A DNA stretch of 29,388 nucleotides, taken from the IMG/VR virus record IMGVR_UViG_3300025890_000097, positions 1-29,388 of that record. The stretch is one strand, 5' to 3'. Under the pieces are notes generated by a model. It made no database searches, was not told the origin of the DNA, and saw nothing but the letters and a program-made list of their open reading frames with translations. Position numbers and translations under genes: made by a program. This DNA comes from a virus. Taxonomy: Duplodnaviria > Caudoviricetes. Positions 6,908 to 24,792 of this stretch are shown one piece after another; positions within the stretch are counted from its first letter, which is position 1; each line of letters opens with the position of its first letter.

Positions 6908-6925
6908 ATCTACCTACCTTTGTTA

Positions 6926-7991: not shown

Positions 7992-8666
7992 CTAGGTTTC
8001 ATTAGTTAATATAAAGCCATCCTCTTCGACAAAACCGTACTCGTCTAGTGAATGGTCGGATTGTTGAGTTTCAACAGCAAGTTCTCCTGTAACAATCCTA
8101 GTCTGCTTAGTCCCCAAATGCTCATCGACATCCTTCTGATCTGTATCACTATTGAATCCACGAAAACTAAATCTTAGTTTCGGGAAAGCCGCTAGTGTAT
8201 CAAATGATATCCTTGTCCGTACTATCTCGGGTGCAATACCACGCATGGACAATTCTTTTTGATAGGCATTCAAGTTCTTCAAAGACGCAGGAGTAACTTG
8301 TAGTAAGTATGCTTCACTAAAGGGCCCATTAGCTAAGACAACTGCTAATCGTTTCTGATCAACGCAAGCCTTAACCTTGTTCCCTGTAGGTGTAGTCCTA
8401 GACCCCCAAGCATTTTGGGAGCAAGAAACACACATGTCATTCTGCATGGCATGACTGTTCTTACTTGGGTACATACCATCTAGTGAATAGCAATCGGGTG
8501 TGGATGATTGACTATCTTCAGACCACTCTTCAGCGTACCAAGACTTAGAAAGTTTTGGGTTAGCACCGACAATAACTACATCTATACTATCGTCTAGTGC
8601 AGTCTCCTCGTCTTTATTGACGATGCGGAATTGTGATCCTTTGATAGATATCTTTGGTGCAATCAT
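7992..8666 (-). CDS. Conserved phage replication-module protein, putative ssDNA-binding/annealing protein with 4 Cys
   Basis: PDCYSLDG..CVSCSQNAWGS..KAC..RLAVV..LQVTPASLKNL pattern; acidic C-terminus; TAATG coupling to the upstream gene. Confidence 0.5.
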   Translation of the reverse strand: MIAPKISIKGSQFRIVNKDEETALDDSIDVVIVGANPKLSKSWYAEEWSEDSQSSTPDCYSLDGMYPSKNSHAMQNDMCVSCSQNAWGSRTTPTGNKVKACVDQKRLAVVLANGPFSEAYLLQVTPASLKNLNAYQKELSMRGIAPEIVRTRISFDTLAAFPKLRFSFRGFNSDTDQKDVDEHLGTKQTRIVTGELAVETQQSDHSLDEYGFVEEDGFILTNET

Positions 8667-9070
8667 TAGTCGTCTGCCTTGTTGACAGGCTTACGAACAT
8701 TGACATCTATTCGTGTGCCATAATTAACACCATCGGGTACAGCTTTGTTGTGGTCAATATAACCACGCACTGCTGTCTTACTGACTCTTTTCTCTAGCAT
8801 ATCCCACGCTTCATTATCTTTTATGAAGTTCAAGACTGCATCCCAATCACCCACTTGGGCAAAGTCGGTAGTCGTTATGAACGCAGTACCAAAGGGTGTC
8901 TTCTTAGAAGTCTCCCCTTCTGCATCCATCTTTTCTTTTAGCCACGCTTCAAGTTTAAGAAGATTAGCTTTTATATCTGCAACCTTTTCTTTAGTCTCAG
9001 ATTCTATAGCCTCCTTCTGTCCTCTTAACTTGAGGTATGTGGCAATAACTTTATCTGTAGTTAGTTCCAT
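8666..9070 (-). CDS. Conserved phage hypothetical protein (coiled-coil N-terminus, possibly Gam/Gp157-like)
   Basis: Coiled-coil-like N-half; DWDAVLNFI..LEKRVSKTAV..VPDGV; RBS GAGGTAACT. Confidence 0.55.
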   Translation of the reverse strand: MELTTDKVIATYLKLRGQKEAIESETKEKVADIKANLLKLEAWLKEKMDAEGETSKKTPFGTAFITTTDFAQVGDWDAVLNFIKDNEAWDMLEKRVSKTAVRGYIDHNKAVPDGVNYGTRIDVNVRKPVNKADD

Positions 9071-9072
9071 AG

Positions 9073-10623
9073 TTACCTCGTTTCCTTTTGTATAAGGTCT
9101 AGTAAAAGACCCTGTAGTTTTTGTTTGTTTTTAAGTCTCTCATACATCCTATACTCCAAGTCTGTTGACTCGATGTGTATGACGTTGGAAGAGAATTTCT
9201 TACCTATCCTTTCAATGCGACCATTCGCTTGAATGTATTGCTCGTTGCTTGTCACTGGCCCATACCACACCACAGTAGATGCGGAGGTAAGAGTTAGACC
9301 ATGTGCCATAGTTGCAGGGTGAGCAATAAGTACATGTGGATTTACTGACTCTTGAAAATCATGGAAGATAACATTTCGTTTGGAGGCAGATACCTGCCCA
9401 TTCACAACTGCTACATCCCAAGTCTTTGAGAGTTCTCTTTCCAGCATGTTTAATGTTCCTGTTAAGGGAACAAAAACTATAACCTTACCTCCTACTTCTT
9501 CTATAATTTCTTTCACTACTTTAACTCTTGGTGAACAATCAACTTCAACATGGCGTCCATCGTCTCCGTAAACTACACCACAACTTATCTGTATAAGTTT
9601 CTGTAGCTTGACCGCCTCATTAACAGCAGTGATTGTTCCTTCCTCCTCAAGTTCTAAAACAAAATGTCTAAGCATCTTGGTGTAGTGACTCTTCTGTTCA
9701 GCAGTAAGGTCAACCTTCCTTGTCTGATATATTGTATCGGGTAAGTCTAAGCATTCCTCTCTAGTATATCTGACGGCAGGGTATAAGATGTGTTTAACTA
9801 TCTCTATTGATTCGGGTCGTGGTATCCACTTCCACTGACCTATCTTCATCATCACCGCTTCTTTGAAAGCAGTATATGTTTTGGTGCAGTATGGACTACC
9901 TACTAGCTTTGCTAATGCCCAAGCATCGGTGGGATCATTCGGGGTGGGTGTACCTGTCATCAACCACAAACGAGTTCTAGGATGTTTGTCCATGAATTTC
10001 CTGAGCGCTTTGAATCTATTTGTCGAGGGGTTTCTAAGAACAGCAACCTCATCTACAATGACAAGGTCAAACATATTAAGAGCATCTTCAGCTATGATAT
10101 TAAAACCATCGTGATTAATAATGTAGAAGTCTGCATCTGTGTTGAGTAACTTCTTACGCCTAGCACTTGTACCATGTAGGGTTACTGACTTTCTATTAGG
10201 GAAGTTCATAAAGATACTATCACCCCATACTCTTTCTAATGTAGATAGGGGAGATATAATTAGAACCTTCTTAACTTCTCCTATTTCCATAAGATAATCT
10301 GATGCCCACAAAGCTGACTGTGTTTTACCTGTACCTATCTCATTAAGTACCAATGCTTTCTTGTGCATTGTAAGGAAAGCAGAAGTCATTCTCTGATGTT
10401 CATAAGGTGTGTATCTACCTGTCCAATTATAATAATGTAGGATCGGTGATGGTACTTGGAATCCTAAGTTCCTTAGTACCTTTACTTCGTCAAGTTTGTG
10501 TGGTGCTACAACGAGTTCTGCTCCGTCATACTTTAGCATGCGTGCTGTAGGTATCGTTTGTAAAATCCGATTGGGATGCTTTGGATTAAGAGCAATCGCC
10601 TTTGCTTGTTCAATAACAATCAT
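9073..10623 (-). CDS. SNF2-like superfamily 2 helicase
   Basis: Motif I EIGTGKT, II VDEVA, III MTGTP, V HGLTL, VI QANGRIERIG. Confidence 0.9.
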   Translation of the reverse strand: MIVIEQAKAIALNPKHPNRILQTIPTARMLKYDGAELVVAPHKLDEVKVLRNLGFQVPSPILHYYNWTGRYTPYEHQRMTSAFLTMHKKALVLNEIGTGKTQSALWASDYLMEIGEVKKVLIISPLSTLERVWGDSIFMNFPNRKSVTLHGTSARRKKLLNTDADFYIINHDGFNIIAEDALNMFDLVIVDEVAVLRNPSTNRFKALRKFMDKHPRTRLWLMTGTPTPNDPTDAWALAKLVGSPYCTKTYTAFKEAVMMKIGQWKWIPRPESIEIVKHILYPAVRYTREECLDLPDTIYQTRKVDLTAEQKSHYTKMLRHFVLELEEEGTITAVNEAVKLQKLIQISCGVVYGDDGRHVEVDCSPRVKVVKEIIEEVGGKVIVFVPLTGTLNMLERELSKTWDVAVVNGQVSASKRNVIFHDFQESVNPHVLIAHPATMAHGLTLTSASTVVWYGPVTSNEQYIQANGRIERIGKKFSSNVIHIESTDLEYRMYERLKNKQKLQGLLLDLIQKETR

Positions 10624-10916
10624 TGGTCGCTCTCAATATAACTTACTACTTCTTGTATAGTTTCTTTATCGTAAACTAAAAAACATTTGCCACCTTGCAT
10701 CTCTATCTCCTTCATCGTTATGGTCTGTAACGCAGTCGGCTTTTTACTTTTATCAGCCTTGCATTCTATACCTACAAATCTACCCCTAACTATGGCTACC
10801 CTATCGGGTATACCTGCCTTACCGAATGGCCCTGCTTGAGGACTGTAAAACCAAACACCATGTTCTTTAAGTGCTTTATCTAACCAACGTTTAATTTTCC
10901 CTTCGGGGGTACTCAT
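10620..10916 (-). CDS. VRR-NUC domain nuclease (Holliday-junction resolvase-like)
   Basis: PEGKIK..GIPD..GRFVGIECK..PTALQ signature; 98 aa. Confidence 0.85.
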   Translation of the reverse strand: MSTPEGKIKRWLDKALKEHGVWFYSPQAGPFGKAGIPDRVAIVRGRFVGIECKADKSKKPTALQTITMKEIEMQGGKCFLVYDKETIQEVVSYIESDQ

Positions 10917-10947
10917 ATTATATAGTCTTTCTTTACAGAGATGTCAA
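10917..10947 (-). promoter_or_regulatory. Possible sigma70-type promoter before the VRR-NUC gene
   Basis: TTGACA (10942-10947) followed after 17-19 nt by TATATAAT directly before the ATG. Spacing is awkward and there is no SD. Confidence 0.35.
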
Positions 10948-10949
10948 CT

Positions 10950-11606
10950 TTAATTTAAAGAATATTCACAAATATTTTTTGCAGGGCAGAATCTACATAG
11001 ACCACTAGGTCTTGGCGGCCAGTTATTGTTTGCAACTGACTGGTTAATTCTTTCTGTTTTACTTAGTAACTTTACCCACATATCTTCTGCATCTAGTCTA
11101 GTGTATGTGTGGGAATCTAATGCCATATCCTTTAGCCATACAAAGGTTGACTGAACCTTTTTAATATTGGGGAAGTGACTGAATACCTGTAGTGCAAACA
11201 TCTCTAGCTGTGCAAAGTCGGGTCTTCGTTTACCTGTCTTCCAATCCATGACGATAGCTTTATCTTCAAATACAATTAAGACATCAAGGATGGATCGTAG
11301 CCATGCGTCTTTCTCCCACCAAGTTGTTGGTGTAAGGTTTTCATTCAGCGTGAGCTTCTGCTCCACTTGTAAAGTTCCACCCATATCCTCTATGCTTTTA
11401 CATAGAGGTTCATATGATTGTGATTCAGTAGGTAGTTCCACTTGTTTACCTAGTCGATGTTCAAGTGCCTCGTGTACTCTCTCACCATATATAGTGGCAT
11501 CACTACCTGTGTCTTTTACTTCTTTAGTTATCCTTTGATGGTAGTATCTTTTAGGACAATTCTCATACATCTTAATAGCAGAGAATGAGTGTGATATATT
11601 TGTCAT
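10950..11606 (-). CDS. PD-(D/E)XK exonuclease, Cas4/RecB-like
   Basis: SFSAIKMYENCP, GERVHEALE, ILDVL, MDWKTGK, QLEMFAL and C-terminal CRFCPAKNIC (1+3 Cys Fe-S staple). Confidence 0.85.
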   Translation of the reverse strand: MTNISHSFSAIKMYENCPKRYYHQRITKEVKDTGSDATIYGERVHEALEHRLGKQVELPTESQSYEPLCKSIEDMGGTLQVEQKLTLNENLTPTTWWEKDAWLRSILDVLIVFEDKAIVMDWKTGKRRPDFAQLEMFALQVFSHFPNIKKVQSTFVWLKDMALDSHTYTRLDAEDMWVKLLSKTERINQSVANNNWPPRPSGLCRFCPAKNICEYSLN

Positions 11607-11848
11607 GTAGACATCCTCCTTATTATATCATGCTTGAGCATCTCAAGTATAGCTATGGTTTCTGTACTGTTATCTAGCATACTAGAAAACCTTACATACT
11701 CACCATCTAACTTTACCATTACAAGAACTTCTTCTACTGTAGCTGTCTCTTGTATAGCAGTTTGAACTTTACCAAGTATCTCAAGCACTCTTACTTTTTT
11801 ATCTTTTAGTACCTGTAATTCTTTAGGTATATCATTTTCGTTTATCAT
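11603..11848 (-). CDS. Hypothetical protein
   Basis: ATGA overlap with the exonuclease start and 4-nt overlap with the polymerase stop; GGAG upstream. Confidence 0.7.
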   Translation of the reverse strand: MINENDIPKELQVLKDKKVRVLEILGKVQTAIQETATVEEVLVMVKLDGEYVRFSSMLDNSTETIAILEMLKHDIIRRMST

Positions 11849-13719
11849 TTTGCGTCTCCATAATTATAACCTACACCCGATTCACAAGCAACAGGTAAGT
11901 CCTTTGCCCAGCGGGGAGCAGTTGACATTCTTCTCTCAACGAGTTCTCTTGCGTGTTGCGTGTCGTGTTCCCGGGTCGTGATAATCACTTCATCATGTAC
12001 TTGAAATGCAACATGATATGACTGCCCGATTGATGCCATCTGTTCTGCGACTACGATTCTTGCCAAGGCTTGAACCACATTCTCTGTAACTTTACCTCCG
12101 TATATTCTAGTCCAGTCTATCTTACTCTGCTCACCAGTTAAGAGTCTTTGCTGTGTTAGTTTACGGAAAGTTCTAGCGTCAGATATATATTCAAATCCAT
12201 CAGAAGTATTACGCAACGCATGGTACTTTATCTTTAGTCCATTAGGTAAAGTTATCCCATCCTTATCATAAGGAAGTAGATTACATATGCTACCCGATGC
12301 ACCCGAGACCATGCCTGTAAGAGCATGACCACATTTATTCCATAGTGATACTATGTTATGGTTCTTCTGTCTGTATAAGTTTACAATTCTTATTGCCTCG
12401 TTCTCATCTATATCAACAGCAATACCACCTTGCCCAAGAGCAAGAGTGGCTCTAAACTTTACATGACCCATGCCATACCCGAGTCCAAGGATACAAGTTT
12501 TACCTACAAACCTTTGTATCTTATCATCTTTTGTTACCTTCTTGCCATAGACTTCAGTAGCAAACTCACTATACACATCTCTACCCTCACGGAATGCTTG
12601 CACAAGATCATCTTGTCCTGCGATATAAGCAACCATACGAGCCTCAATCTGTGACGAGTCACAAGCAATCATCACATCACCTTCGGGTACAGTAATAGCC
12701 TTACGGATTGCACCATTTCTAGGTAGATTCTGTAGGTTAAGTTTATCTCCACCACTAAATCTTCCTGTGTGTGCGCCATAGTAGTTGAGCATGATAGGTA
12801 ATGCTCCCCTGTCTGCAACCTTTATTAAGTTCTCAGTCCTAGTTTCTTCGATGGTAGACTTCGTGCCTAGTCTCGCCGCCACCAGTGCTTGAACCTTTGG
12901 GTTAGGATGTTCTAGTAGAGCAGTAAACTCTTTATCTGTCTTTGCAAAAGCAAATGTTTCTTTACCTGTGCGTAGGCTAGTCTTCATTGGTACTTCCACA
13001 CCAACAGTTTCTAGTATCTTTGCAAAGATTTGGTTAGACATAAGAGCCTTCTTAACTCTGTCCTCACTCAAACCTTTAAGTGTTAATGACTCTATAAGTT
13101 TCTTCTTATCTTCTTTAACCTTTTGAAGATGAGTAGATAAAACCTCCCTGTCCAATACAATAGTAGGCTGAGTATACATACGAATTGTTTGGTCAATAAT
13201 CATTAACTCAGACACAGGTACTTTAGGTCTAAGTTTCTTGTATAGTTTGTATGTTAAGTTTACATCCTGCAAACAGTAGTCAGCATACCTGTCAAGTTCT
13301 TGTGGTGAGAAGTCCTTACGTTTCTTACCCAATGCTTGTACAACTTCATCCCCTTTCTGTCCGAGTTTATAGAAGTTTGATAGAGCCTTGAGAGAACCTC
13401 CCACAGTAGAGTGATGATAAGGTCTAGCCATAGATAAAGTATCTAACCAAAACTTAGGCTTGATACCATACAACCAAGATAGGATTGCACCATCGAACAC
13501 AGTATTGTGTGCAAGGATAGCATCTTCCGAATAGTCTAACGAGTTTAGAAACTTACCAACATCGTCTCCACTATACCAATCGGGTGGGTTATCATCTACC
13601 TTTACACCTACACCTATGACCTCAAACCTTGGGTCTCTAACGTAGGCTTCAGTAGTCATCTTAGATAAGGAAAACTCACGACTATAATATGTTTCGAAGT
13701 CAATAGTAATTACCCTCAT
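11845..13719 (-). CDS. polA: Family A DNA polymerase with 3'-5' exonuclease
   Basis: ExoI IDFET, ExoII HNTVFD, ExoIII YCLQD; motif A DSSQIEAR, B RFVGKTCILGLGYG, C VHDE. Start moved to ATG 13719 (ATGA overlap, G-rich RBS). Confidence 0.95.
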   Translation of the reverse strand: MRVITIDFETYYSREFSLSKMTTEAYVRDPRFEVIGVGVKVDDNPPDWYSGDDVGKFLNSLDYSEDAILAHNTVFDGAILSWLYGIKPKFWLDTLSMARPYHHSTVGGSLKALSNFYKLGQKGDEVVQALGKKRKDFSPQELDRYADYCLQDVNLTYKLYKKLRPKVPVSELMIIDQTIRMYTQPTIVLDREVLSTHLQKVKEDKKKLIESLTLKGLSEDRVKKALMSNQIFAKILETVGVEVPMKTSLRTGKETFAFAKTDKEFTALLEHPNPKVQALVAARLGTKSTIEETRTENLIKVADRGALPIMLNYYGAHTGRFSGGDKLNLQNLPRNGAIRKAITVPEGDVMIACDSSQIEARMVAYIAGQDDLVQAFREGRDVYSEFATEVYGKKVTKDDKIQRFVGKTCILGLGYGMGHVKFRATLALGQGGIAVDIDENEAIRIVNLYRQKNHNIVSLWNKCGHALTGMVSGASGSICNLLPYDKDGITLPNGLKIKYHALRNTSDGFEYISDARTFRKLTQQRLLTGEQSKIDWTRIYGGKVTENVVQALARIVVAEQMASIGQSYHVAFQVHDEVIITTREHDTQHARELVERRMSTAPRWAKDLPVACESGVGYNYGDAK

Positions 13720-14021
13720 CTTGACCCCCCTTTGTTTATAGTAGGAACTTGTTCTCCTGCTAATGCACCATAGCCACACATGTCCACATAGTTGTCCACA
13801 TGTTTAGGGTTCTGCTTTATCCTAGCTATCTTTAGTAAGGCTAGCATAATCGGTACATCGTGGGGGTTAAACTCAACCCCCTTATATGTAGTCCACAACT
13901 CTGCTGTAACTCTAGCATTATCAGCAAAGTCTCCGTGGTCATCTTGTCTGTCCACCGATGTCAGCTTGTCTGCTTTCTTTAGTATCCTACCTCTTTTGTA
14001 TTCAACATTCTTTTTCTTCAT
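13716..14021 (-). CDS. DUF6378-like protein
   Basis: RQDDHGDF..LW..DV..MLALLKIAR..DNYVDMCGY pattern; start at ATG 14021 behind GGAGGTAAC. Confidence 0.7.
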   Translation of the reverse strand: MKKKNVEYKRGRILKKADKLTSVDRQDDHGDFADNARVTAELWTTYKGVEFNPHDVPIMLALLKIARIKQNPKHVDNYVDMCGYGALAGEQVPTINKGGSR

Positions 14022-14451
14022 CGTTACCTCCATGTAAAGTATATAATTCCACACCTTTACCACAATGTAAAGAGTGTTGATTACAAATGTTAACTGCTTG
14101 ACCTGCCGATGCACCCATAGCCAACGCACCTATAGCTATGTCCTTACCATCTCCAAAGGCACAGTACATATCTCGTTTGATAAGTTGGTTGTATTGTAAT
14201 TCATACAGTCCATCTTTCTTCACCACAATAAGTTGTGCCATGCTAGGTGATACATCGGGCATTACAGGTAGACCTTTAGTATACCATTCCGATAGTTGTT
14301 TGATGTAAGCTAGTAGACCTACACCTGTAATGATAACAACTTCTCCCTCGCTCGTGTCATACCAAGCCTTTGATGACTCCCATTTCTGAGAGCCATCGTT
14401 AGCCATTCTGTCAGTCGCAAGGGTCTTTCCATCCCAAGCTATTACTGTCAT
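14002..14451 (-). CDS. HslV/proteasome-beta-like Ntn-hydrolase
   Basis: N-terminal (M)TVIAWDGKTLATD, a Lys about 28 residues in, and AFGDG..AIGALAMGASAGQAV. Confidence 0.65.
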   Translation of the reverse strand: MTVIAWDGKTLATDRMANDGSQKWESSKAWYDTSEGEVVIITGVGLLAYIKQLSEWYTKGLPVMPDVSPSMAQLIVVKKDGLYELQYNQLIKRDMYCAFGDGKDIAIGALAMGASAGQAVNICNQHSLHCGKGVELYTLHGGNDEEKEC

Positions 14452-15566
14452 AATTTAGTTACCTCCTCAATTTTCATGCCACCTTCATGGTGATACGATG
14501 TATACTTATCACCTCGTTTCTCATCATGCCCTTCTTTCTCAAAGACATTGAATCTTCTACGCAATTCGGTAGACATATCTGTTAGTATTTTATGGACACC
14601 ATCGAACACTTCCTTGCTCGTAGGTTTTGATTGTTGGTAGTATCCACTCGGTGGTGTAGCACAGAACCCCAACAACAATTCTTTTGAGAACTCGTTGTTG
14701 CGTATTGAATGCTCAAGCAAATCAAGCCAAGCCTTGCTAGACCAATCGGGTTGCTTGTGGTGGTACATACTCTGCCCTTCTCTGTCTGCCCACACTTTCT
14801 CAACCAATGGATCAAAGGCACGAACCCTTGCCCTTGCCTTGATACCTCGCTTGAACTTAGCTAGTGCCTGTCTCCACACTTTACGTTCTTCGGGTTTCTC
14901 CACAAACTTATCATCGGGTCTACGATTGAGACACTCGCCAGTAAGTATGTTGAACTTTAACCCTTGAAAGAATGCAGGTGACTCTCGCATAGCCTCGCTG
15001 AACAAAGCATAACTACCATACCAAGCCTTGTCCTTTAAGTCTTTCATGGTATGCTCATCAGCATCATTCGGTAGAGCATGAGCCATCTCAATTAGACGTT
15101 GGTACTTAGTAGTTGTAGCCTCAATTACATGCTTGTTAACCGACTTGACATGGTTGATTCGATACAAACCTTTCTTGTGTCTCTCAATGTTGAATGGCAT
15201 CCAACGATAGCAAGAGGACACTAACGATTGTGAGTGCCTCCAGACTTCCTCGGGTGTACATACAAACTCCACTAAGTTGTCAGGTGTTATACGCATGAAT
15301 GGTTTACTTCCGTACCCTTCAATGTGCATAGTGTAAGTTACACCAACATGTTCGTCTGTGTGTTCCTTGAACAATCGAAAGCTAGCAGATATCTTCCTAC
15401 CTTTCTTTGGGTCACGACACCTTGCATACTCCCTTGCAAAGTCATCGTAGTTATCAAGCCTTCGACCACCATTGTTGCTGTCAAACCAAGTATGGTATTG
15501 GCTATCGTCTTTCGACTTCTTTACAATGAAGTCAATGACTTCTTGTTTTGTTATAGTATCTTCCAT
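14448..15566 (-). CDS. Hypothetical protein
   Basis: 372-aa ORF, RBS GAGGTAACT, ATGA overlap downstream. Confidence 0.8.
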   Translation of the reverse strand: MEDTITKQEVIDFIVKKSKDDSQYHTWFDSNNGGRRLDNYDDFAREYARCRDPKKGRKISASFRLFKEHTDEHVGVTYTMHIEGYGSKPFMRITPDNLVEFVCTPEEVWRHSQSLVSSCYRWMPFNIERHKKGLYRINHVKSVNKHVIEATTTKYQRLIEMAHALPNDADEHTMKDLKDKAWYGSYALFSEAMRESPAFFQGLKFNILTGECLNRRPDDKFVEKPEERKVWRQALAKFKRGIKARARVRAFDPLVEKVWADREGQSMYHHKQPDWSSKAWLDLLEHSIRNNEFSKELLLGFCATPPSGYYQQSKPTSKEVFDGVHKILTDMSTELRRRFNVFEKEGHDEKRGDKYTSYHHEGGMKIEEVTKL

Positions 15567-15574
15567 AGTTACCT

Positions 15575-16267
15575 CTACTTTCTTGTTAGTTTATTAAATG
15601 TTACAGCCGCAGTCATACTGTTTAAGTCCACGCCAAGTTCTTCTGATGTCTTAGCCTTTGGTCTTTCAGTAATCTTCTTGTGTCGTTCCTTAGCCTCATC
15701 GGGTAGCAAATCCCACAAGGGTTGCCATGCTTTGAGAGCAGGTGCTAGTGTCGTATAGCTAGTCGTTATCTGCCTAACACCCTCCACAAAATCATTAGCT
15801 TTTTTGTTTGCCTCAAAGATACCTTGCGTATACTTCTTGAATGGCTCGTGTAACCAATCAAACTTATCGTTACCAAAGTCTATCTCGTTACGATTGTAGT
15901 CCATGTAGTAACCACAATCTCCTGCCTTCTGCCATGTAGACTTAGGTGGGAATCGTAGTGGACTTGGTAGTTGTAAGTGCAAACTTACATTCTTCCATAC
16001 GGACATCTTACAATTTGCTGATTGCCACACATCTTCGGGTGCATCTTTGAACCCAGTCAATGGTAGGCTTTCAATCGTATCAAAGAACCCTGTGGGTAGA
16101 GCATTCATCTTTGCTTGGATGTCTGCTGAGAACAAACTGTCATACAGTTTCTTCGCCCATTCCATAGGGTAGTTCTTCTCTGCCTCTCGTATACTATCTT
16201 TGAACATAGCCTTCGCATTGTTCTCGATATCTGTTTTCAGTTGGTCTGAAAATCTTACTGTTGCCAT
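15575..16267 (-). CDS. Hypothetical protein, possibly Nmad5-like
   Basis: Start MATVRFS with GGAG RBS; C-terminal TTLAPALKAWQPLWDLLP resembles the Nmad5 T..L...WP...LLP pattern. Confidence 0.45.
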   Translation of the reverse strand: MATVRFSDQLKTDIENNAKAMFKDSIREAEKNYPMEWAKKLYDSLFSADIQAKMNALPTGFFDTIESLPLTGFKDAPEDVWQSANCKMSVWKNVSLHLQLPSPLRFPPKSTWQKAGDCGYYMDYNRNEIDFGNDKFDWLHEPFKKYTQGIFEANKKANDFVEGVRQITTSYTTLAPALKAWQPLWDLLPDEAKERHKKITERPKAKTSEELGVDLNSMTAAVTFNKLTRK

Positions 16268-16440
16268 GTGCTTTCTCCTTTGTTCCAATCATTACTTAAA
16301 CTACGAGCATGTTGTTCTGCCATAGTACCTAGTTCCTTGCGTATCTTCTCGAACGCTTGGTCGTTGGTCATGCCTAGTTCATCTAAGCATTCAACCAACA
16401 TTGTCTCTGCATCAATGCAGAGTTCCTTAACTTTACCCAT
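16255..16440 (-). CDS. Small hypothetical protein
   Basis: AAGGAGGTAACAATG start; overlaps both neighbours. Confidence 0.75.
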   Translation of the reverse strand: MGKVKELCIDAETMLVECLDELGMTNDQAFEKIRKELGTMAEQHARSLSNDWNKGESTWQQ

Positions 16441-16609
16441 TGTTACCTCCTTGTGGGTTAGTGATTGTCCAATCCGGTATCTCTATATAATCTCTAGTTA
16501 CCTTGTGTTTAAAATAGAGATACCCATTGGCTTGGTGCATAAACATATAGCCATCAAGTATCTCCTTACTTGCATACTCAAAGGCTTTGTGTACTTCTTG
16601 GTCAGTCAT
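16433..16609 (-). CDS. Small hypothetical protein (58 aa, not in the ORF track)
   Basis: MTDQEVHKAFEYASKEILDGYMFMHQANGYLYFKHKVTRDYIEIPDWTITNPQGGNNG*; GGAGGGGG RBS; fills the gap exactly. Confidence 0.75.
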   Translation of the reverse strand: MTDQEVHKAFEYASKEILDGYMFMHQANGYLYFKHKVTRDYIEIPDWTITNPQGGNNG

Positions 16610-17735
16610 TAGCTACCCCCTCCATGTAGACGATCTCACCCCAAGGTGCATCGCCCTTCTCGTTGGATACCCATAGGACTGGATACGCAGGTTCATCACC
16701 AAAGTCGTTACAACACAGGTCTGTGAGTACAACACAGCAGACAGGATCAATGTCCTTGTCTTGCATGTATCTGAAGATAGGACTGAAAGCAGTACCACCT
16801 CCACCATGTGGTGATATGACTGGCTCATCATCTTCAAAGCAGTCATAGTGACAGACTTCGGAATCAAAGTAGATGATGTGTATCTTGGTAGGAGATAAGT
16901 CTTGGTAGACTTTGATAATCTCACTCGCAAACTGAGTGAGTTCCTCCTCACCAATCGAACCCGATGTGTCGATAGCAAAGCATAGTTCACCTAGAGCCTC
17001 ACCCGATACACTCGGTAGATACATATCTTGTGACAAGAACCTTCTGTTAGGTCTCGCCCAAGTCCTAGTATCTGTTCGTTGCTTGACAAGAAACCTTTGC
17101 ATGACATCTTTCCAATTCACTCTTGGTTTCATCAAGTCACCAACGAATCGTTCAAGTCCTGCCGATAGTTTACCCATCATCTTTGCAGACTGAGCCGCTT
17201 GTGCTACCTTAACTTTCCAGTCAGCTTTCTTCTGCTCAATCTCAGCAGGAGAAGAACCCTCCCCTGCATCTTCGATGTCATCATATGGTTTCATACCATC
17301 ACCATACCCACCATCACCATCTTCGGGCATAGGTGGCAACAAGTTGTAGACACCATCGGTAGTACCACCACCTCGTTTGAGTAGGTCTCTGTCCATGACA
17401 CCACCTTCGATAAACTTACCAATGCCCTCGTCTTGTAGCATTGGATTAATCACAGCATCACCTGCATAGTTCCATCGCTTGTGGTCTCTGTCACCCTTAC
17501 GAAAGATGTGTTCAAACATTGGATGACACACCTCGTGAGCAACGAGGAACAGAAGTTCCTCATCACTCTTGGACTCACAAAAGCTAGGGTTAAACAACAC
17601 CCTCTCGCCATTGGTAGCCGCAGTTGGAATGTCCTCTGATAATTCAAAGGGCATGTTCATAGCCAAGTTACCAAAGAACGGATGCTCAAGTATGAGTGCC
17701 GTCTTTGCCTTAGCGATACGTCTTTCTAGTTCCAT
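16602..17735 (-). CDS. DUF2201-type metallopeptidase + vWA domain protein
   Basis: TAATNG, HEVCH (HExxH), WNYAGDAVIN; MIDAS DTSGS, GGGTAF, LTD. Confidence 0.9.
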   Translation of the reverse strand: MELERRIAKAKTALILEHPFFGNLAMNMPFELSEDIPTAATNGERVLFNPSFCESKSDEELLFLVAHEVCHPMFEHIFRKGDRDHKRWNYAGDAVINPMLQDEGIGKFIEGGVMDRDLLKRGGGTTDGVYNLLPPMPEDGDGGYGDGMKPYDDIEDAGEGSSPAEIEQKKADWKVKVAQAAQSAKMMGKLSAGLERFVGDLMKPRVNWKDVMQRFLVKQRTDTRTWARPNRRFLSQDMYLPSVSGEALGELCFAIDTSGSIGEEELTQFASEIIKVYQDLSPTKIHIIYFDSEVCHYDCFEDDEPVISPHGGGGTAFSPIFRYMQDKDIDPVCCVVLTDLCCNDFGDEPAYPVLWVSNEKGDAPWGEIVYMEGVAND

Positions 17736-18586
17736 TAGTTACCTCCCATAAATGCACCCATCTTATCCATAATAGCCTTAGCCTCTTCAGCCTTAGTACG
17801 TCTGAGGTCGGGGTCATTACGCAAAGATTCAGGGTGGTTGTTAGCTAAACTCCCCTCAACTTGTTGACGCATAGCCTCCAAGTTTGGGTCGTCAGCAAAG
17901 TTAAGCCGACTAAGTATTGAACAGACTTCCTTGGTATTCTCTACCAATGTGTCTCTGAACACAGACTTAGGGTCGGCAAGTTTCTCAGCCATGTGTTTGA
18001 CTCGGTCATACAATCTCTGCCAAGCCTCCTGCATAGCTTGTTGGGCAGAGTTCTCAACTCGTGCCTCAACATCTTGCTGTATCTTAGCCAACTCAGCATC
18101 ACCGATACTCACTCGGAAGTCATTCGATGGTACTGGAAACACAGCCATGTCCATACTAAACTTACGTTGGATATCATGGAGTGCAGGGTAGTCAGCCTTG
18201 TTGTACAAAGAACCAAGGAATCTCTGTGCATCTGCATGCAGTCTCGGATACTCTTGGTAGAATGTATCTACAAGTGATTGCCAGTCACCCTTCTCTTTCC
18301 TAAACTCGGTCATAAAGTTTAGGTAGTTAGCAGATGGTAACATCATCGTGCCTTCAATACCCCAAGGTAAGGTGTTCGCATAGAACTTCTTACGAATCAG
18401 AGTAGACTTCTGATGTATGTTATTGAGTGCATCATTCATAGGTAACAACGACTTGTTGTATCTACCTGCTTGTGTTGCACTACCATTCTGTTGAGCCACC
18501 TGTTCGGTGGCTCGCTTGTCGTACTTTCTTGCAGTCCATTGGGATATACCCAACTGAACTAACAACGCTTTATCACTTAGTTTCAT
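17735..18586 (-). CDS. DUF3150-like helical protein
   Basis: Start MKLSDKALLV behind GAGGAGGTAACT; W.ARKYDK, TLPW, YP...I..KF, LNF..DP.L motifs; sits between AAA+ and vWA genes. Confidence 0.6.
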   Translation of the reverse strand: MKLSDKALLVQLGISQWTARKYDKRATEQVAQQNGSATQAGRYNKSLLPMNDALNNIHQKSTLIRKKFYANTLPWGIEGTMMLPSANYLNFMTEFRKEKGDWQSLVDTFYQEYPRLHADAQRFLGSLYNKADYPALHDIQRKFSMDMAVFPVPSNDFRVSIGDAELAKIQQDVEARVENSAQQAMQEAWQRLYDRVKHMAEKLADPKSVFRDTLVENTKEVCSILSRLNFADDPNLEAMRQQVEGSLANNHPESLRNDPDLRRTKAEEAKAIMDKMGAFMGGN

Positions 18587-18597
18587 AGTTACCTCCT

Positions 18598-19590
18598 CTA
18601 AAATAAAACATCTTGGTGAGCGATTGCCCACTTAGTGAATGCCTCATGTGATGCAAGGTCGGGATTCTTACGACTAGCATACGAGACACATAGGACTGAG
18701 AACTCGGGTGACATACGCTCTGCATACTTGACGATGTTACCAAAGTTTTCGGTGGTTGCTCTGTCACCCAACGCACCAGTAAGTGCATAGCAAGTAGCAG
18801 GATCATCGGGTACAGCCACACTCATTGGTGATTGTATGATTGTGTCGGGGTTAGGTAGCTTACGTTCAATCTTTAGAAAGCCACTAAACTCTGCGGCACA
18901 CCCTTCACCAACAGCACCCTTGAATGTTTCGTACTCAGCCTCGGGTGGTACGATACCAATCATATCAGCAACACCTTCAACCCAACTACGAGGCGATGGG
19001 TTCACATCTCTCTGTGGGTCAAAGTCATGCAGTAGTGCAGTACGGAATCGAATGAATGATATGACAACAGGTTTCACTCCGTGGTCAATCGCCCATGATG
19101 TCCAGTCATCAAGGTGTGTCTCAAGTTCATACACAGTCTCACGATTACGCAAGTGAGATAGTACTCTGTTAGCACCTGCTCTGTCTGATTGCTTGTTACC
19201 AGTAGAGACAACCATCCAACCTTTCTTCATAGGTTTACCATGAAGATTCCTTGCTTGGCAGATGTTAGCTAGTACCTTCTGCAAGTCAGCACCTGCTTGG
19301 TTTCTGTCGTCAAAGCAGAGTATACCTTCATCGGGTATGTCTGTTCTGCCCTCGTATGGAAACCAATCGGGCAACTTGTAGTGTAGCATCTCGTCACCAT
19401 TCGGATAGAGAATACCAAAGTCCTCAACCAACATGGTTGGCATATGCTTTTCGATATACCCAACACCAAGTTCCTTGGCAACTTCTTGCACGATGGTTGT
19501 CTTACCTCCACCCGGGCTACCTTCGATAGCTATCGTTCTCTTCTTTGGGAACAATCTCTTGATTGTTTCTTTCAATAATGTTGCTCGCAT
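18598..19590 (-). CDS. MoxR/CbbQ-like AAA+ ATPase
   Basis: Walker A GSPGGGKT, Walker B ILCFDD, sensor TGN..DRAG, LRNR, PSPRSW. Confidence 0.9.
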   Translation of the reverse strand: MRATLLKETIKRLFPKKRTIAIEGSPGGGKTTIVQEVAKELGVGYIEKHMPTMLVEDFGILYPNGDEMLHYKLPDWFPYEGRTDIPDEGILCFDDRNQAGADLQKVLANICQARNLHGKPMKKGWMVVSTGNKQSDRAGANRVLSHLRNRETVYELETHLDDWTSWAIDHGVKPVVISFIRFRTALLHDFDPQRDVNPSPRSWVEGVADMIGIVPPEAEYETFKGAVGEGCAAEFSGFLKIERKLPNPDTIIQSPMSVAVPDDPATCYALTGALGDRATTENFGNIVKYAERMSPEFSVLCVSYASRKNPDLASHEAFTKWAIAHQDVLF

Positions 19591-19781
19591 TACGCACCTT
19601 CCTTTCTATTATGGTTATATTTGCGATGGTCTAAGCCATAGGATACAACTTGTTTGTTGACCCTCTTACCTTTAGCGACTTGCTTGTCTGAGTAGTAGAT
19701 GATGTCGCCATTCTCATCTCTTACTGGTACTCCACCTTGATGCTCTCGTAGCATGAAGAGTTTCAACATACTTTTAGTCAT
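19590..19781 (-). CDS. Small hypothetical protein
   Basis: GGAG RBS; TAATG coupling to the ATPase. Confidence 0.7.
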   Translation of the reverse strand: MTKSMLKLFMLREHQGGVPVRDENGDIIYYSDKQVAKGKRVNKQVVSYGLDHRKYNHNRKEGA

Positions 19782-19983
19782 GGTTAGTTTCTCCTTCCCA
19801 TAGTTGATTGATGGTTAGACATGAGTTGGTTTCAGTCCAAAGACTTTCATCCCAAGTCTCACATCCAAGCATCAGATTGATAAACAAAAAGGCAATGAGG
19901 AAACCAACACCTACCGTAACAGCAAGTGCTAGTGTCCATTCGATTACCTTTCGTTTAGTTACAGGGTGTCCATATATAATCAT
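19774..19983 (-). CDS. Small membrane protein
   Basis: Start MIIYGHPV coupled by TAATG to the upstream mini-ORF; one TM segment followed by GC..W..C. Confidence 0.7.
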   Translation of the reverse strand: MIIYGHPVTKRKVIEWTLALAVTVGVGFLIAFLFINLMLGCETWDESLWTETNSCLTINQLWEGETNHD

Positions 19984-20075
19984 TAGAACAACCCCCATCC
20001 AAAATAGATGTCTAGTATAGCGACAGTAGCAGATGCTACCGACCCCCATATAATCCACCATGTTGTATCATTCAT
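19983..20075 (-). CDS. 30-aa hydrophobic mini-protein (not in the ORF track)
   Basis: MNDTTWWIIWGSVASATVAILDIYFGWGLF*; AAGGAGG RBS; coupled at both ends. Confidence 0.65.
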   Translation of the reverse strand: MNDTTWWIIWGSVASATVAILDIYFGWGLF

Positions 20076-20283
20076 ATAAGCCTCCTTTGTTATTGATACC
20101 TTTTAGTTCTTGCTTGTTGGATATCACAACGTAGTTAGACTTGTGCATTGGTACGACTGTAAACTTACGCTTACCTGCCGATACCTCCCCACATTTCAAA
20201 CAAGTTGGATAACCTAAATTGAAACGAGCAGGACTAACCTGCTCATCACAATCTGTTGTCATACAATCGTTACTTAACGACAT
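20068..20283 (-). CDS. C4 zinc-finger protein, DksA/TraR-finger-like
   Basis: CMTTDCDEQVSPARFNLGYPTCLKCG; ATG 20283 with GGAGG. Confidence 0.65.
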   Translation of the reverse strand: MSLSNDCMTTDCDEQVSPARFNLGYPTCLKCGEVSAGKRKFTVVPMHKSNYVVISNKQELKGINNKGGLYE

Positions 20284-20428
20284 ACTCAAACCTCCATCTG
20301 TTACATCTCTCTCTATGCCAACTGTAAGGCATGAAGTAATCATCTTCTGATATGTCCATAACCAAGTAACCATTGGTAAAGTAACCATAGTAACCCGACT
20401 GAGTACGACTCTTGTAAACCTTCTGCAT
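20270..20428 (-). CDS. Small aromatic-rich hypothetical protein (52 aa, not in the ORF track)
   Basis: MQKVYKSRTQSGYYGYFTNGYLVMDISEDDYFMPYSWHRERCNRWRFEYVVK*; GGAGGT RBS. Confidence 0.7.
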   Translation of the reverse strand: MQKVYKSRTQSGYYGYFTNGYLVMDISEDDYFMPYSWHRERCNRWRFEYVVK

Positions 20429-20442
20429 ACTATACCTCCATA

Positions 20443-20476
20443 GAAAACAGAGGACATGGTGTTACCCATGCCCTCT
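20443..20476 (-). terminator. Hairpin with short U-tract (weak terminator or processing site)
   Basis: AGAGGGCATGG GTAACA CCATGTCCTCT GTTTTC: 11-bp stem with one G-U pair. Confidence 0.55.
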
Positions 20477-20488
20477 AGTGATTGCTGA

Positions 20489-20797
20489 TTAGGAAAGGAC
20501 TTCAATGTCGCTCTTCCTTGATGGTGCTGATGTTAAGTCTCTCTTCTCAAGCATAGCTAAGTAAGGCTTACCACCGAACCTAAGACTTGCTAACAGTACA
20601 GGTTGCTCTGCCTTGTTAGCATCAGGTACAAACAAGTTCATCTCATACTTCAACTTATCTGCATGTTTCTTCATAACTGCAAACAAGTCTGATACGTTCT
20701 CTTTGTTGAACTTACCATCTGCATTTGGTCTTAGGTTTATCTTCTTAGTCTTGTGGTTAGCAAAGACTTCTACGTTACCTTCATATAGTTTACCCAT
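20489..20797 (-). CDS. Early hypothetical protein, paralog of 21862-22200
   Basis: AAGGAG RBS; shares M.KL..GNV, G.FN.EN, KLK and PVLLA..FG.KP.L.ML with 21862-22200. Confidence 0.8.
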   Translation of the reverse strand: MGKLYEGNVEVFANHKTKKINLRPNADGKFNKENVSDLFAVMKKHADKLKYEMNLFVPDANKAEQPVLLASLRFGGKPYLAMLEKRDLTSAPSRKSDIEVLS

Positions 20798-20856
20798 GAT
20801 ATATCTCCTTTGTTAAGATCATTGATATACCGACATTCAGAAAGGAATTTTCTGCC

Positions 20857-20898
20857 TGCCGATTTTTTAAATTTACCCTATCGGTTTTGATTTGTAAA
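20857..20898 (-). promoter_or_regulatory. Sigma70-type early promoter
   Basis: TTTACA-N17-TAAATT-N6-ATCGGCA. Confidence 0.65.
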
Positions 20899-20899
20899 G

Positions 20900-21360
20900 T
20901 TTTGGTGTCTTTACAAGATAAACGCAGGTTTAAACAAGTATCTATAAACATACCGGTTTATACATGTATAGTTACAGGTTATATACAGGTTATATATATT
21001 AAAAAACGTAGGGATAACAGCAGGTTACAACTTAGTATATAAACTATCTAGGTAGAATTAAGTAATACGTTGCTACTCTCGCTATCGTTATATCGTTGGT
21101 AATATCTTGCAGACAAAGGATGTATGTTAATTTAATAGATATTCTAGATAGTATAGATAGTTATTTGACTGCTATATGGTTAAACTCCAAGTAAATCAAC
21201 GTTATATGGACTACATCATGTAAACTTTAGGTATCTAAAACACAACATGTTGTGTCAAGTTAGTAACTAGATAGTTAGATAGTTGTAACTTTACATTAAA
21301 CCATGACCTTATCTCCGTTTGTAAGCGTGCTATAACCCCCCGAACTATGGGATTTATATA
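20900..21360. other. AT-rich non-coding region with short repeats and palindromes (candidate origin/regulatory region)
   Basis: TACAGGTTATA x2 (20973-20994), multiple TAGATA(G), palindromes TATACATGTATA (20959-20970) and ACACAACATGTTGTGT (21240-21255). Confidence 0.45.
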
Positions 21361-21361
21361 T

Positions 21362-21414
21362 AAAAAATAAAAAGAAATAAAAAAAAGAATAAAAAAGAAA
21401 GGGGCCGAAGCCCC
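21362..21414 (-). terminator. Rho-independent terminator
   Basis: GGGGC TTCG GCCCC followed by about 39 nt of T-rich sequence, 5 nt after a stop codon. Confidence 0.85.
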
Positions 21415-21419
21415 AATCT

Positions 21420-21605
21420 CTATTTGATATGTTCGATTACCCATAAGTTGGCTGATACTTTCTTGAATTTACCCATGCAGATCTTGTCAAGGTTGTCTTC
21501 GTCTGCATCTTTGAGCACATGCAACATGGTTTTAGTACCATCTATCATCCACTTGTATGTATCGTTCTCGATTATTACAGTATCGTTGTTGTATTTTAAC
21601 TTCAT
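21420..21605 (-). CDS. Small early hypothetical protein
   Basis: Start MKLKYNND with GGAG-N6-ATG. Confidence 0.75.
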   Translation of the reverse strand: MKLKYNNDTVIIENDTYKWMIDGTKTMLHVLKDADEDNLDKICMGKFKKVSANLWVIEHIK

Positions 21606-21611
21606 AGTATT

Positions 21612-21651
21612 CTCCGTTAGTTGTGAGGGAGCCGAAGCTCCCTCGGTTGAT
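21612..21651 (-). repeat. Intergenic hairpin element, copy B
   Basis: ATCAACC-GAGGGAGC-TTCG-GCTCCCTC-ACAAC-TAAC-GGAG. Confidence 0.85.
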
Positions 21652-21810
21652 CTAATTGGCCTGATGTATTTCAATCTGACCAGCGTTGCAGACGTTCTTG
21701 TCTATCAACTGTCTCCAAGCCCAATTCTCTGCCTGCGCTAGAGAAAAGAACCATCTGAAATAGAATGAATTATCTTCAATCCAAATCAACTTCACTGTGC
21801 GTCTTTCCAT
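21652..21810 (-). CDS. Small early hypothetical protein
   Basis: Start MERRTVKL with GGAG-N6-ATG. Confidence 0.7.
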   Translation of the reverse strand: MERRTVKLIWIEDNSFYFRWFFSLAQAENWAWRQLIDKNVCNAGQIEIHQAN

Positions 21811-21816
21811 GTCACA

Positions 21817-21860
21817 CTCCATTGTTGTGAGTGGGGGCCGAAGCCCCACACTCGGTTGAT
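21817..21860 (-). repeat. Intergenic hairpin element, copy A
   Basis: ATCAACC-GAGTGTGGGGC-TTCG-GCCCCCACTC-ACAAC-AAT-GGAG. Confidence 0.85.
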
Positions 21861-21861
21861 G

Positions 21862-22200
21862 TTAAGCAAGCTTTCTAGTCTTGCTTGTTGGTGACTTTGG
21901 CTTGCTGCCCATTGGCGGAAGCATAGTCAACTTTGGCTTGCCAAACTTGTCAGCCAGTAAGACTGGTTCCAAGCCCTTCTTCTGCCCGACTGGGAAGTAG
22001 AAGCTCCAAGTATTGAGTGGAAGCTTAAGCTTCTTGCTCAACTCGTTAGCCTTAGCTAATAACTCAACACAATTCTCTGAGTTAAAAGCGCCCTCGACAT
22101 CCTTTTTAAGGCGGATGTCTTCGATCATTGCTTCTGGATCATCAGGATTAGTCCTGAAACCATTTACAATAGATACATTACCTCTAAAGAGTTTACTCAT
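21862..22200 (-). CDS. First early gene, hypothetical, paralog of 20489-20797
   Basis: GGAGGTG RBS; motif identity with 20489-20797. Confidence 0.8.
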   Translation of the reverse strand: MSKLFRGNVSIVNGFRTNPDDPEAMIEDIRLKKDVEGAFNSENCVELLAKANELSKKLKLPLNTWSFYFPVGQKKGLEPVLLADKFGKPKLTMLPPMGSKPKSPTSKTRKLA

Positions 22201-22259: not shown

Positions 22260-22301
22260 TGCCGATGATTAAATTAAAGCATAACTATACACGTTTGTCA
22301 A
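22260..22301 (-). promoter_or_regulatory. Sigma70-type early promoter
   Basis: TTGACA-N17-TTTAAT with TGn extension, then N6-ATCGGCA. Confidence 0.7.
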
Positions 22302-22465
22302 GTATGAGGCTCAGTAAGGGTTTCAGAGGCTCTATAATCATAGCCTACAGACAACATACAAAAAGGCGAAAGGGGGGGCACATGGACTGCGTGCCGACAC
22401 CACCCCCCCATATAAGTAAACCTCACATAACAAGAGCCAAAAAACCAACGTGTAAAGTTTACTGC

Positions 22466-23265: not shown

Positions 23266-24645
23266 ATGGATATAGACTATACGCCTAGTAAAGTATGTAG
23301 GGAGTTTATGCAATCAGACGCAAAGATGCGTGTGCTTATGGGGCCAGTTGGTTCGGGTAAGTCAGTCGCAAGTTGCTTTGAGGTTATCAGACGGGCATCA
23401 ACTCAGAAACATAATAAGCAAGGGATTCGTAAATCACGAGTAGCGATTGTTCGTGAGACTGCAAGACAGTTACAAGATACTACTATTAAAACTTTTCACG
23501 ATTGGTTTCCGCCCGGGATATGCGGAGACTACATGCGTACTACCAAAACATTTTTCTTCAAGGTTGGAGATGTAGAGTGTGAGATTATGTTTCGTGCTCT
23601 TGATGACTCTGACGATGTAGCAAACTTGAACTCATTAGAATTAACGTTTGCATGGTTCAACGAGTGCAGGGATATCAACCCTGACATTGTTGACGCGATG
23701 TCAAAACGTATTGGCCGTTTCCCATCAGCTAAAGATGGTGGCCCGTCATGGTTTGGGATGTGGGGGGATACAAATCCTCCGACTATGGATACTTGGTGGT
23801 ATTATCAGATGGAAGGTTTAGATTCTAAAGATGGAGTCAGCCCGAATGATAATGGGTGGGATGTATTCAAACAACCTTCGGGTAGAAGCTCCTTGGCAGA
23901 AAATGTTGAAAATCTGCCCGAAGGCTATTATGATGTACAGGGTAGGTCAGAAGAATACACTCGCGTATATATAGACGGAGAGTATGGACTAAGTTCTGCA
24001 GGTCAGCCTGTATATAAATACTTTAGACCAGACTATCACATGGGTAGTCAGAGGTTACGTCCTATTATAAATGGGGTACGGCCTATTGTCGTAGGTATAG
24101 ATTTAGGCTTGACACCAGCGGCAGTAATAGGGCAACAAGATCCTCGCGGGCGAGTCTTGATACTTGCAGAAGCTGTGTCATTCGACATGGGCATTCAACG
24201 ATTCGTCCGCACCATTCTGCGCCCGATGTTGACCGAGAGGTTCTCGGGCGCACCAATTTTAATTATTACCGATCCAGCAGGAGTGCAGAGAGCACAAACT
24301 GACGAGAGGTCTGCCGTGGATATTATCAAGGCTGAAGGTTTTAGAGTTCTCCCCGCTAAGACCAACACCATATCTGCGAGACTATCTGCGGTAGACGACT
24401 TCCTTATGAGGCAAGTCGATGGGGATTCAGCTTTTGTGCTTGACCCTAGTTGCACGCAGTTGAAAGCAGCAATGATGGGAGGGTATAGATTCCACCATAA
24501 GAACGGTAATATACACAAGAATAAACATTCTCATGTAGCGGAAGCGTTGCAGTATCTTATGCTGCATGTTGGTTCTGCTGGTGAGGGTGGATACATTATT
24601 CAGAAGCGAGAAATAAAAAGGGTTGCGGCAGGAGGATGGACTTGA
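23266..24645 (+). CDS. terL: Terminase large subunit
   Basis: Walker A GPVGSGKS, Walker B AWFNE, coupling motif DTNP, nuclease GIDLG, DPAG and SHVAEALQY. Confidence 0.92.
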   Translation: MDIDYTPSKVCREFMQSDAKMRVLMGPVGSGKSVASCFEVIRRASTQKHNKQGIRKSRVAIVRETARQLQDTTIKTFHDWFPPGICGDYMRTTKTFFFKVGDVECEIMFRALDDSDDVANLNSLELTFAWFNECRDINPDIVDAMSKRIGRFPSAKDGGPSWFGMWGDTNPPTMDTWWYYQMEGLDSKDGVSPNDNGWDVFKQPSGRSSLAENVENLPEGYYDVQGRSEEYTRVYIDGEYGLSSAGQPVYKYFRPDYHMGSQRLRPIINGVRPIVVGIDLGLTPAAVIGQQDPRGRVLILAEAVSFDMGIQRFVRTILRPMLTERFSGAPILIITDPAGVQRAQTDERSAVDIIKAEGFRVLPAKTNTISARLSAVDDFLMRQVDGDSAFVLDPSCTQLKAAMMGGYRFHHKNGNIHKNKHSHVAEALQYLMLHVGSAGEGGYIIQKREIKRVAAGGWT

Positions 24646-24724
24646 TACACTACCTTCGTAGTTACCTTCCAACTATGTTACCTTTGTACCCACCTGTCTT
24701 CCTTTCGGCAGGTGGGTTTTTCTT
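24646..24724 (+). ncRNA. Candidate 3'-UTR small RNA with anti-SD-like repeats
   Basis: CTACCTTC, TAGTTACCTTCC and TGTTACCTTT in tandem, followed by a terminator. Confidence 0.35.
24688..24724 (+). terminator. Rho-independent terminator
   Basis: ACCCACCTGTC..GGCAGGTGGGT followed by TTTTCTT. Confidence 0.8.
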
Positions 24725-24766: not shown

Positions 24767-24792
24767 TAATGTAAACTTACTGGAGGTTGCTT

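Follow-up and report, generated by a model that had tools for sequence, protein, structure and literature searches.

What does the short stretch between the terminase large subunit gene (terL) and the portal gene of this phage encode, and what does it act on? The preliminary description of the locus had read three tandem pyrimidine-rich units between the terL stop and its terminator as a 3′-UTR fragment of the packaging transcript that acts in trans on early genes sharing the ribosome-binding motif AGGTAAC. We analyzed this proposal in the window (the whole stretch of DNA under study, 29,388 nt), a 29.4-kb fragment of a virus record that is 55% complete according to CheckV, complete relatives spanning 49-57 kb. 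A minus-strand block (4052-22200) holds genes for primase/helicase, ssDNA-binding protein, SNF2 helicase, VRR-nuc, exonuclease and DNA polymerase A, together with a DUF2201 protein, an AAA ATPase and small genes (PHROG, Pfam), and a plus-strand block holds a terS candidate, terL, portal and capsid; that the terS candidate is the small terminase is probable, judging from its position alone. Throughout, 'early' denotes the strand opposite terL and 'late' the terL strand, as strand labels rather than timing data.

The sequencing runs that contain part of the window and name their source are marine, except for one viral metagenome. Cultured relatives are distant (terL at most 43%, capsid at most 54%), and no element is present at this place in Pseudomonas phage Rollin, where the distance from terL to the next gene is only 9 bp, or in Rhizobium phage RHph_TM3_14A, where a 16-bp convergent gap follows terL. 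Nine matches among genome_contigs fall in MAG bins of unrelated taxa; these are probably mis-binned phage contigs, and therefore no host was assigned from them. Among the nine loci, the exact TAnnnT box described below occurs in two and a hairpin-terminator unit in about four more, with no unit seen in the remaining three (terL identity 68-77%).

The start of the unit was located by comparing the best 80 of 600 confirmed terL relatives (83-100% identity), 77 of which had usable post-stop sequence (L023, L031 and L072, with incomplete sequence, were left out). Across these loci the final terL codons carry TTGC at −23 to −20 relative to the terL stop (77, 75, 77 and 77 of 77), a 17-nt spacer ends with the TG of the TGA stop, and TAnnnT follows directly after the stop (76, 76 and 76 of 77), with the three middle −10 bases variable and a purine at +13 in 74 of 77. 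By consensus, this arrangement is a σ70 extended −10 promoter, and it is kept, overlapping the terL stop, in about 76 of the 77 relatives; a generic promoter scanner did not report it. Synonymous sites within the −35 box are constrained: the third base of codon −7 is T in 62 of 64 four-fold codons and that of codon −6 is a purine in 68 of 68, and the top-base share at 13 upstream four-fold codons tested as a control is 0.37-0.83. The promoter spacing therefore predicts an RNA start at 24658, and conservation among close relatives starts exactly at this position. A dedicated conserved promoter, with conservation beginning where the RNA is predicted to begin, speaks against a 3′-UTR fragment of the packaging transcript. 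Scanning with the promoter pattern gave 119 loci, which are pattern-selected and hence not independent support for the promoter; a script found a terminator in 112 of them, yielding 64 distinct RNAs. In a subgroup (L015, L016, L220, L228 and L231) the promoter and seed 1 are kept, and a terminator hairpin without U tail is followed by a different inserted gene.

The RNA, whose parts are listed in the table, is predicted to display both of its seeds in open positions, one in the 7-nt loop of the 5′ hairpin and one in the 11-nt linker. The three units, the terminator and the pairings of the preliminary description are all found where it placed them, and two of its three seed repeats stand as conserved. 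Unit 1 does not, as it lies upstream of the predicted start, is present in just 3 of 18 close relatives sharing the seed, and forms the most variable block of the alignment. The 5′ stem appears in the consensus fold of 13 relatives and is lost in 2 of the 13, with one-sided changes only, and the terminator stem shows two-sided changes at 2 pairs; counted over whole structures, two-sided stem changes affect 2 of 18 pairs in the clade of the window and 7 of 31 pairs in one six-sequence clade. Because a tetraloop replaces the terminator loop in several relatives, this loop is not an essential seed. Predicted folds of the family RNAs (about 62-108 nt) combine one or two hairpins with linkers that stay single-stranded and end in a terminator, and their loop sequences are wholly different between clades, many complementing the AUG and neighbouring bases or a Shine-Dalgarno sequence.

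Searches of the window and 20 related loci against Rfam 15 gave no hits at the gathering threshold or at an E-value threshold, the best sub-threshold scores being 19 of 50 bits for atoC and 15.6 of 75 for nse_sRNA. The C4 antisense RNA model likewise had no hit, and the predicted folds show one or two tandem hairpins plus a terminator, not three stems. The element does not fit the cis-encoded antisense class either, its longest helices to other window sites being 11-16 bp including G-U pairs. What is found are the features of a trans-acting base-pairing sRNA: its own promoter and intrinsic terminator, recognized by conservation only, and an accessible seed complementary to distant start regions that is conserved or co-varies with them. 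On these sequence grounds we regard the conserved sRNA-like gene as real and predict that it is a stand-alone unit. Four RNA runs, seen as assembled contigs, cover late genes with no listed piece over 24470-24716, and such contigs are uninformative for a 66-nt RNA. An 81-aa minus-strand open reading frame (24427-24672), antisense to terL, was dropped as spurious.

Table. Predicted elements of the small RNA gene and its predicted target sites (energies in kcal/mol; z and p from the co-variation test by gene family)
Feature	Position	Strand	Remarks
terL, terminase large subunit	23266..24645	+	PHROG phrog_2, E = 6e-23; last codons and stop carry the promoter
−35 box TTGCGG of predicted sRNA promoter	24623..24628	+	within final terL codons; T77, T75, G77, C77 of 77 loci
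Extended −10: TG of terL stop, then TACACT	24643..24651	+	17 nt from −35
Unit 1 CTACCTTC	24650..24657	+	overlaps −10 and spacer; predicted to lie outside primary RNA
Predicted 66-nt small RNA	24658..24723	+	start inferred from promoter spacing
5′ hairpin, 6-bp stem, 7-nt ACCUUCC loop	24658..24676	+	seed 1 spans 5′ strand and loop; from fold and unpaired probabilities
Single-stranded linker, seed 2	24677..24687	+	predicted unpaired; GTTA-C-T invariant in 14/14 aligned relatives
Intrinsic terminator, pyrimidine loop, U tail	24688..24723	+	stem 24688-24717, loop TTCCTTTC
Predicted target: start of 377-aa DUF2201 (metallopeptidase/VWA-like) gene	17736..17748	-	13 bp, best site, −16.0; family p = 0.02; Pfam
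Predicted target: start of 283-aa gene 17735-18586	18585..18596	-	12 bp, −12.6; family z = −3.75, 18 clades
Predicted target: start of HslV-like peptidase gene 14002-14451	14456..14466	-	11 bp, −11.2; family p = 0.004; PHROG
Predicted target: start of 372-aa gene 14448-15566	15565..15575	-	−10.6; family z = −4.3, 19 clades
Predicted target: start of 134-aa gene 8666-9070	9069..9079	-	−10.6; family z = −3.7, 13 clades
Predicted target: Shine-Dalgarno of primase/helicase gene 4052-6907	6914..6923	-	−10.4, linker seed; z = −5.7, 12 clades, strongest family; PHROG
Predicted target: start of DUF6378 gene 13716-14021	14023..14033	-	−10.2; family z = −3.3, 7 clades
Predicted target: Shine-Dalgarno of AAA ATPase gene 18598-19590	19596..19602	-	−9.6; family z = −3.7, 20 clades
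Predicted target: start of 61-aa gene 16255-16440	16441..16450	-	−9.4; absent from family test table

Within the window, AGGTAAC occurs 17 times versus 4.1 ± 2.0 in shuffles, with none of 100 shuffles reaching 17. Fifteen of the 17 copies are on the minus strand, two of these being the element itself, and all seven minus-strand GAGGTAAC octamers sit at gene starts. Uninterrupted helices with the RNA measure 13 bp (17735 start), 12 bp (18586) and 11 bp (14451). The match that had been proposed between CUACCUU and the primase ribosome-binding site gives way to another register, in which the primase start pairs with the linker unit over 10 bp, including one G-U pair. Each start was scored as the best contiguous helix plus the RNA opening cost over −25 to +15, using gene starts called by our own script and energies from a helix model of our own that takes no account of target structure. 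A score of −9 kcal/mol or lower was reached by 11 of 27 early starts. None of the 10 late starts and 11 of 366 windows inside early genes scored as well (Mann-Whitney p = 0.003 for early against late starts and 6e-7 against internal windows). One predicted target, the DUF6378 gene, directly precedes DNA polymerase A. The strongest of the predicted sites belong to a conserved early trio (16602-19590, minus strand) of AAA ATPase, 283-aa protein and DUF2201 metallopeptidase/VWA-like protein.

The co-variation of seed and ribosome-binding motif that a trans-acting RNA aimed at its own early start regions predicts was found among the relatives. We analyzed 57 contigs or loci, 56 of them with an RNA call, which form 20 clades at below 70% RNA identity; G065 was left out (promoter and 5′ end deleted), G067 was kept without a −10 at this offset and with an arbitrary RNA start, and the RNA starts of G058, G077 and G080 were shifted by one base. 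When RNA labels were permuted among the 20 clades, own early starts scored −5.9 versus −4.8 (z = −6.7, p = 5e-5), and late starts, permuted over 17 clades, scored −3.8 with their own RNA versus −4.1 (z = +2.8). By family, 12 of 21 early families but only 1 of 33 late ones reached p < 0.025, with primase leading (z = −5.7). The early signal persisted with one genome per clade (z = −7.05), and in the controls z lay between −1.7 and +1.7 for five shuffled RNAs and was 0.03 for the antisense strand. RNAduplex, which was run on 10 random starts per genome and has no accessibility term, gave z = −4.25 for early and −0.98 for late starts. In 15 disjoint pairs from the terL tree, hand-picked and mostly but not all sisters, cognate pairing was better in 12 of 15 for early orthologues (Wilcoxon p = 0.0013) and in 5 of 14 for late ones.

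The sequences themselves follow the same pattern. AGGTAAC is present at 43 of 204 early starts in the 14 genomes whose RNA contains GTTACCT and at 16 of 758 in the 42 genomes whose RNA does not, so the motif is seldom kept in relatives without the seed, and the outcome that would have refuted the preliminary description did not occur. Helices peak over −12 to −4 and reach into the AUG. The start region of the 283-aa gene differs among G018, G061 and G052, and in each the genome's own RNA complements it, over 12, 10+10 and 14 bp, respectively; in clade 5, where the protein starts MSKL, not MKL, the RNA loop complements the new codons. Among mismatches, the G-U class outnumbers its mirror A-C class by 66:38 in own pairs, compared with 110:109 in foreign pairs (p = 0.03, with pseudo-replicated counts). 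Together with the clade-wise co-variation, this makes it likely, as far as sequence comparison goes, that the RNA pairs in trans with its own early start regions. As a separate observation, pairing at late starts is slightly weaker with the own RNA than with foreign ones (z = +2.8, and +2.0 in a second test; absent with RNAduplex), hinting that late-strand starts are selected to avoid it.

Several results weigh against a uniform effect. A small own-clade effect is also seen inside early genes (z = −2.9 and −2.3), where it amounts to about −0.3 kcal/mol compared with −1.1 at starts, and part of the pairing signal is therefore compositional. In 8 of 24 genomes with enough genes, own early starts were not better than own late starts at p < 0.05, and in clade 9, G029 and G064 the own RNA had no advantage over foreign RNAs at early starts. 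Nine of the 21 early families show no co-variation, including helicase, exonuclease, PolA, VRR-nuc and the HTH-like gene; several of the genes without signal overlap the upstream stop, and these might be silenced through translational coupling. The clades are related to one another. Some genes were assigned to the wrong family or given a start that is wrong or truncated at a piece border, errors expected to blur the signal rather than create it.

We put at roughly 0.7 the probability that the terL-portal unit makes a stand-alone RNA that pairs with about ten of the phage's own early starts and blocks their translation as a group. In such a process, host σ70 polymerase would transcribe the RNA from about 24658, and read-through from terL may add to the supply. 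Loops and linkers would nucleate pairing over target positions −12 to +3, and the helix would exclude the 30S subunit, which is the usual outcome of pairing at a start region. The RNA would be expected to accumulate with time and genome copy number because it is short and ends in a terminator hairpin. Primase, ssDNA-binding and early accessory proteins would then come under negative feedback with a delay, and virion genes would be spared.

The RNA promoter is of the plain σ70 type, and no late-specific mark was found in it. A near-palindromic DNA motif, TGTAWASTT, is found 15 times where 2.2 copies are expected. It directly precedes the terS −35 in most of the relatives examined, is found within the spacer of the early promoter too, and is absent from the RNA promoter. 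Copies were noted at 22451-22459 (+), 22283-22291 (−) and 24770-24778 (+), with four within 20893-21295. The motif looks like an operator that could repress early and activate late transcription, with the weak HTH gene (6962-7246) a candidate source of the binding protein.

The pairing could also serve another end, with the RNA binding early starts but damping replication from entry onwards, as in a carrier or pseudolysogenic state or in copy-number control. A plain σ70 promoter lacking TGTAWASTT would suit such a role, as would the position of primase as the most consistent target. Against it, the RNA gene lies inside the late region, and no integrase was found among the window genes (PHROG, Pfam) or among the 29 late-strand proteins of the complete relative G005 (Pfam). 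We consider damping from entry less likely than delayed feedback but a live alternative, and it shares its pairing mechanism with the best explanation, only timing and purpose being different. Since all seeds are partly anti-Shine-Dalgarno, some pairing with any ribosome-binding site is expected, and the RNA might instead be a broad silencer of host mRNAs, or of the early genes of a co-infecting relative, for which the match to its own starts is secondary. Foreign RNAs too reach −8 or lower at 15% of early starts, and G040, G043 and G079 carry GTCACCTCC, a near-exact mimic of the 16S 3′ tail. Late starts, however, are read by the same host ribosomes and show no own-clade match or a slight avoidance, and the seeds track changes in spacer, AUG and first codons of single genes (as in G018, G061 and G027 at the 283-aa gene), which makes a broad silencer improbable. 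Distant members with GTCACCTCC may act more broadly; L381 and L384 also carry a 16S tail mimic of this type instead of a clade-specific seed.

The shared motif could alternatively be a protein site, either for a phage DNA-binding protein or for an RNA-binding protein titrated by a minus-strand decoy, as the preliminary description had allowed in suggesting that the repeats are decoys for a protein recognizing AGGTAAC. At the DNA level, GTTACCT is indeed a same-strand direct repeat at early starts and in the element, and the phage encodes an HTH protein (6962-7246), weakly supported and below the Pfam cut-off. The promoter and terminator, however, yield the complement of the motif rather than the motif, loops and registers vary by target without a single consensus, the seed is displayed in covarying hairpins, and the G-U asymmetry (p = 0.03) favours RNA-RNA pairing; a protein site, decoys included, is thus disfavoured and seems very improbable. 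Purine-rich starts do pair with any C/U-rich sequence, and the small compositional effect in internal windows would fit an ordinary terL terminator and pyrimidine-rich spacer with chance complementarity to purine-rich ribosome-binding sites. Such a spacer would hardly come with a conserved promoter and constrained synonymous sites, the own-clade effect disappears when the RNA is shuffled at constant composition, late starts show none and the sister contrasts hold, so that we give chance very little weight.

The favoured reading, an RNA that silences the phage's own early starts, has relatives among known RNAs. Chromosomal RNAs such as cuckoo/CcsR, RsaE and RNAIII mask Shine-Dalgarno sequences with C/U-rich loops in tandem hairpins. 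Their motif is fixed, whereas here the loop changes between phage clades along with its targets. Among phage RNAs, the nearest is C4 of P1/P7, a ∼77-nt RNA that acts in trans on phage mRNA with specificity from exposed loops, one of which partly occludes a ribosome-binding site; RNase P releases it from a precursor, its three-stem fold is conserved, and its roles are in immunity and lysogeny (PMC5320573). Trans action through exposed loops at a phage ribosome-binding site is common to both, but the RNA described here would arise directly as a primary transcript running from promoter to terminator, and its predicted early targets, about ten, are dispersed. The SAS of cluster K mycobacteriophages is an extended ribosome-binding motif found at some of the non-structural genes, its conservation reaching past the bases that pair with 16S, and the authors left undecided whether its binder is an RNA or a protein (PMC3203893); unlike in that account, a complementary RNA gene is present in this genome and co-varies with the motif.

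PreS of lambda and VpdS of VP882 are phage sRNAs that pair through seeds, have several targets and influence the lytic cycle; both are Hfq-dependent and come from temperate phages, PreS targets mainly host mRNAs, and neither is described in the available parts of these sources as silencing a motif-tagged set of its own early genes (10.1101/2024.10.31.621285; PMC12197685). Control of a phage's own gene timing by RNA, as proposed here, is shared with OOP, sar, aQ and the PAK_P3 antisense RNAs, which lie opposite their targets with long perfect complementarity (PMC12197685; PMC4933390). In contrast to all of these, the gene of the present RNA lies 5-18 kb away from the best of its predicted targets, and the predicted pairing runs through seeds of 7-14 nt. 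For the late sRNAs of PAK_P3, the accessible text gives single candidate phage targets only (PMC4933390). The phage sRNAs described in these texts have as targets either host genes or a single phage gene that they overlap. A literature search in which subscription papers were little covered turned up no description of a phage sRNA that silences the early regulon of its own phage; the supplements of PMC10690425 may list the RNA unannotated.

Early-gene shut-off is poorly explained in phages without a known shut-off protein, and a multi-target sRNA that co-evolves with the early regulon of its own phage would add a new level to the control of phage timing. We hold at even odds the wider proposal that one programmable RNA times the lytic cycle by silencing the early regulon through ribosome-binding-site and first-codon tags, RNA and tags being rewritten clade by clade like an address code and virion genes being selected to avoid it. 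If true, it would be the RNA counterpart of translational repressor proteins, of which T4 RegA is one, could explain orphan start-associated motifs, and may belong to a class recurring in unrelated phages. The 20 natural RNA-target sets enable reciprocal tests without phage culture, and the approach suggests a search route for the partners of unexplained start-associated motifs as well as compact orthogonal translational repressors.

Three minor features were noted along the way. In G065 (L366), the −10 box and 5′ hairpin are absent and the seed and terminator are kept; the gap is apparently a short deletion, by natural loss or assembly error, and the contig could be used as a natural control. 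A long AT-rich non-coding stretch at 20800-21230 holds repeated AACTATCTA-like units and several TGTAWASTT copies, and is possibly a replication origin or genome-end region. On the minus strand, at 21401-21414, near 21625 and near 21835, three GC-rich hairpins with UUCG loops lie between the first small early genes, two of them followed by the same CTCACAAC word before the ribosome-binding site; these are possible mRNA-stabilizing or processing signals.
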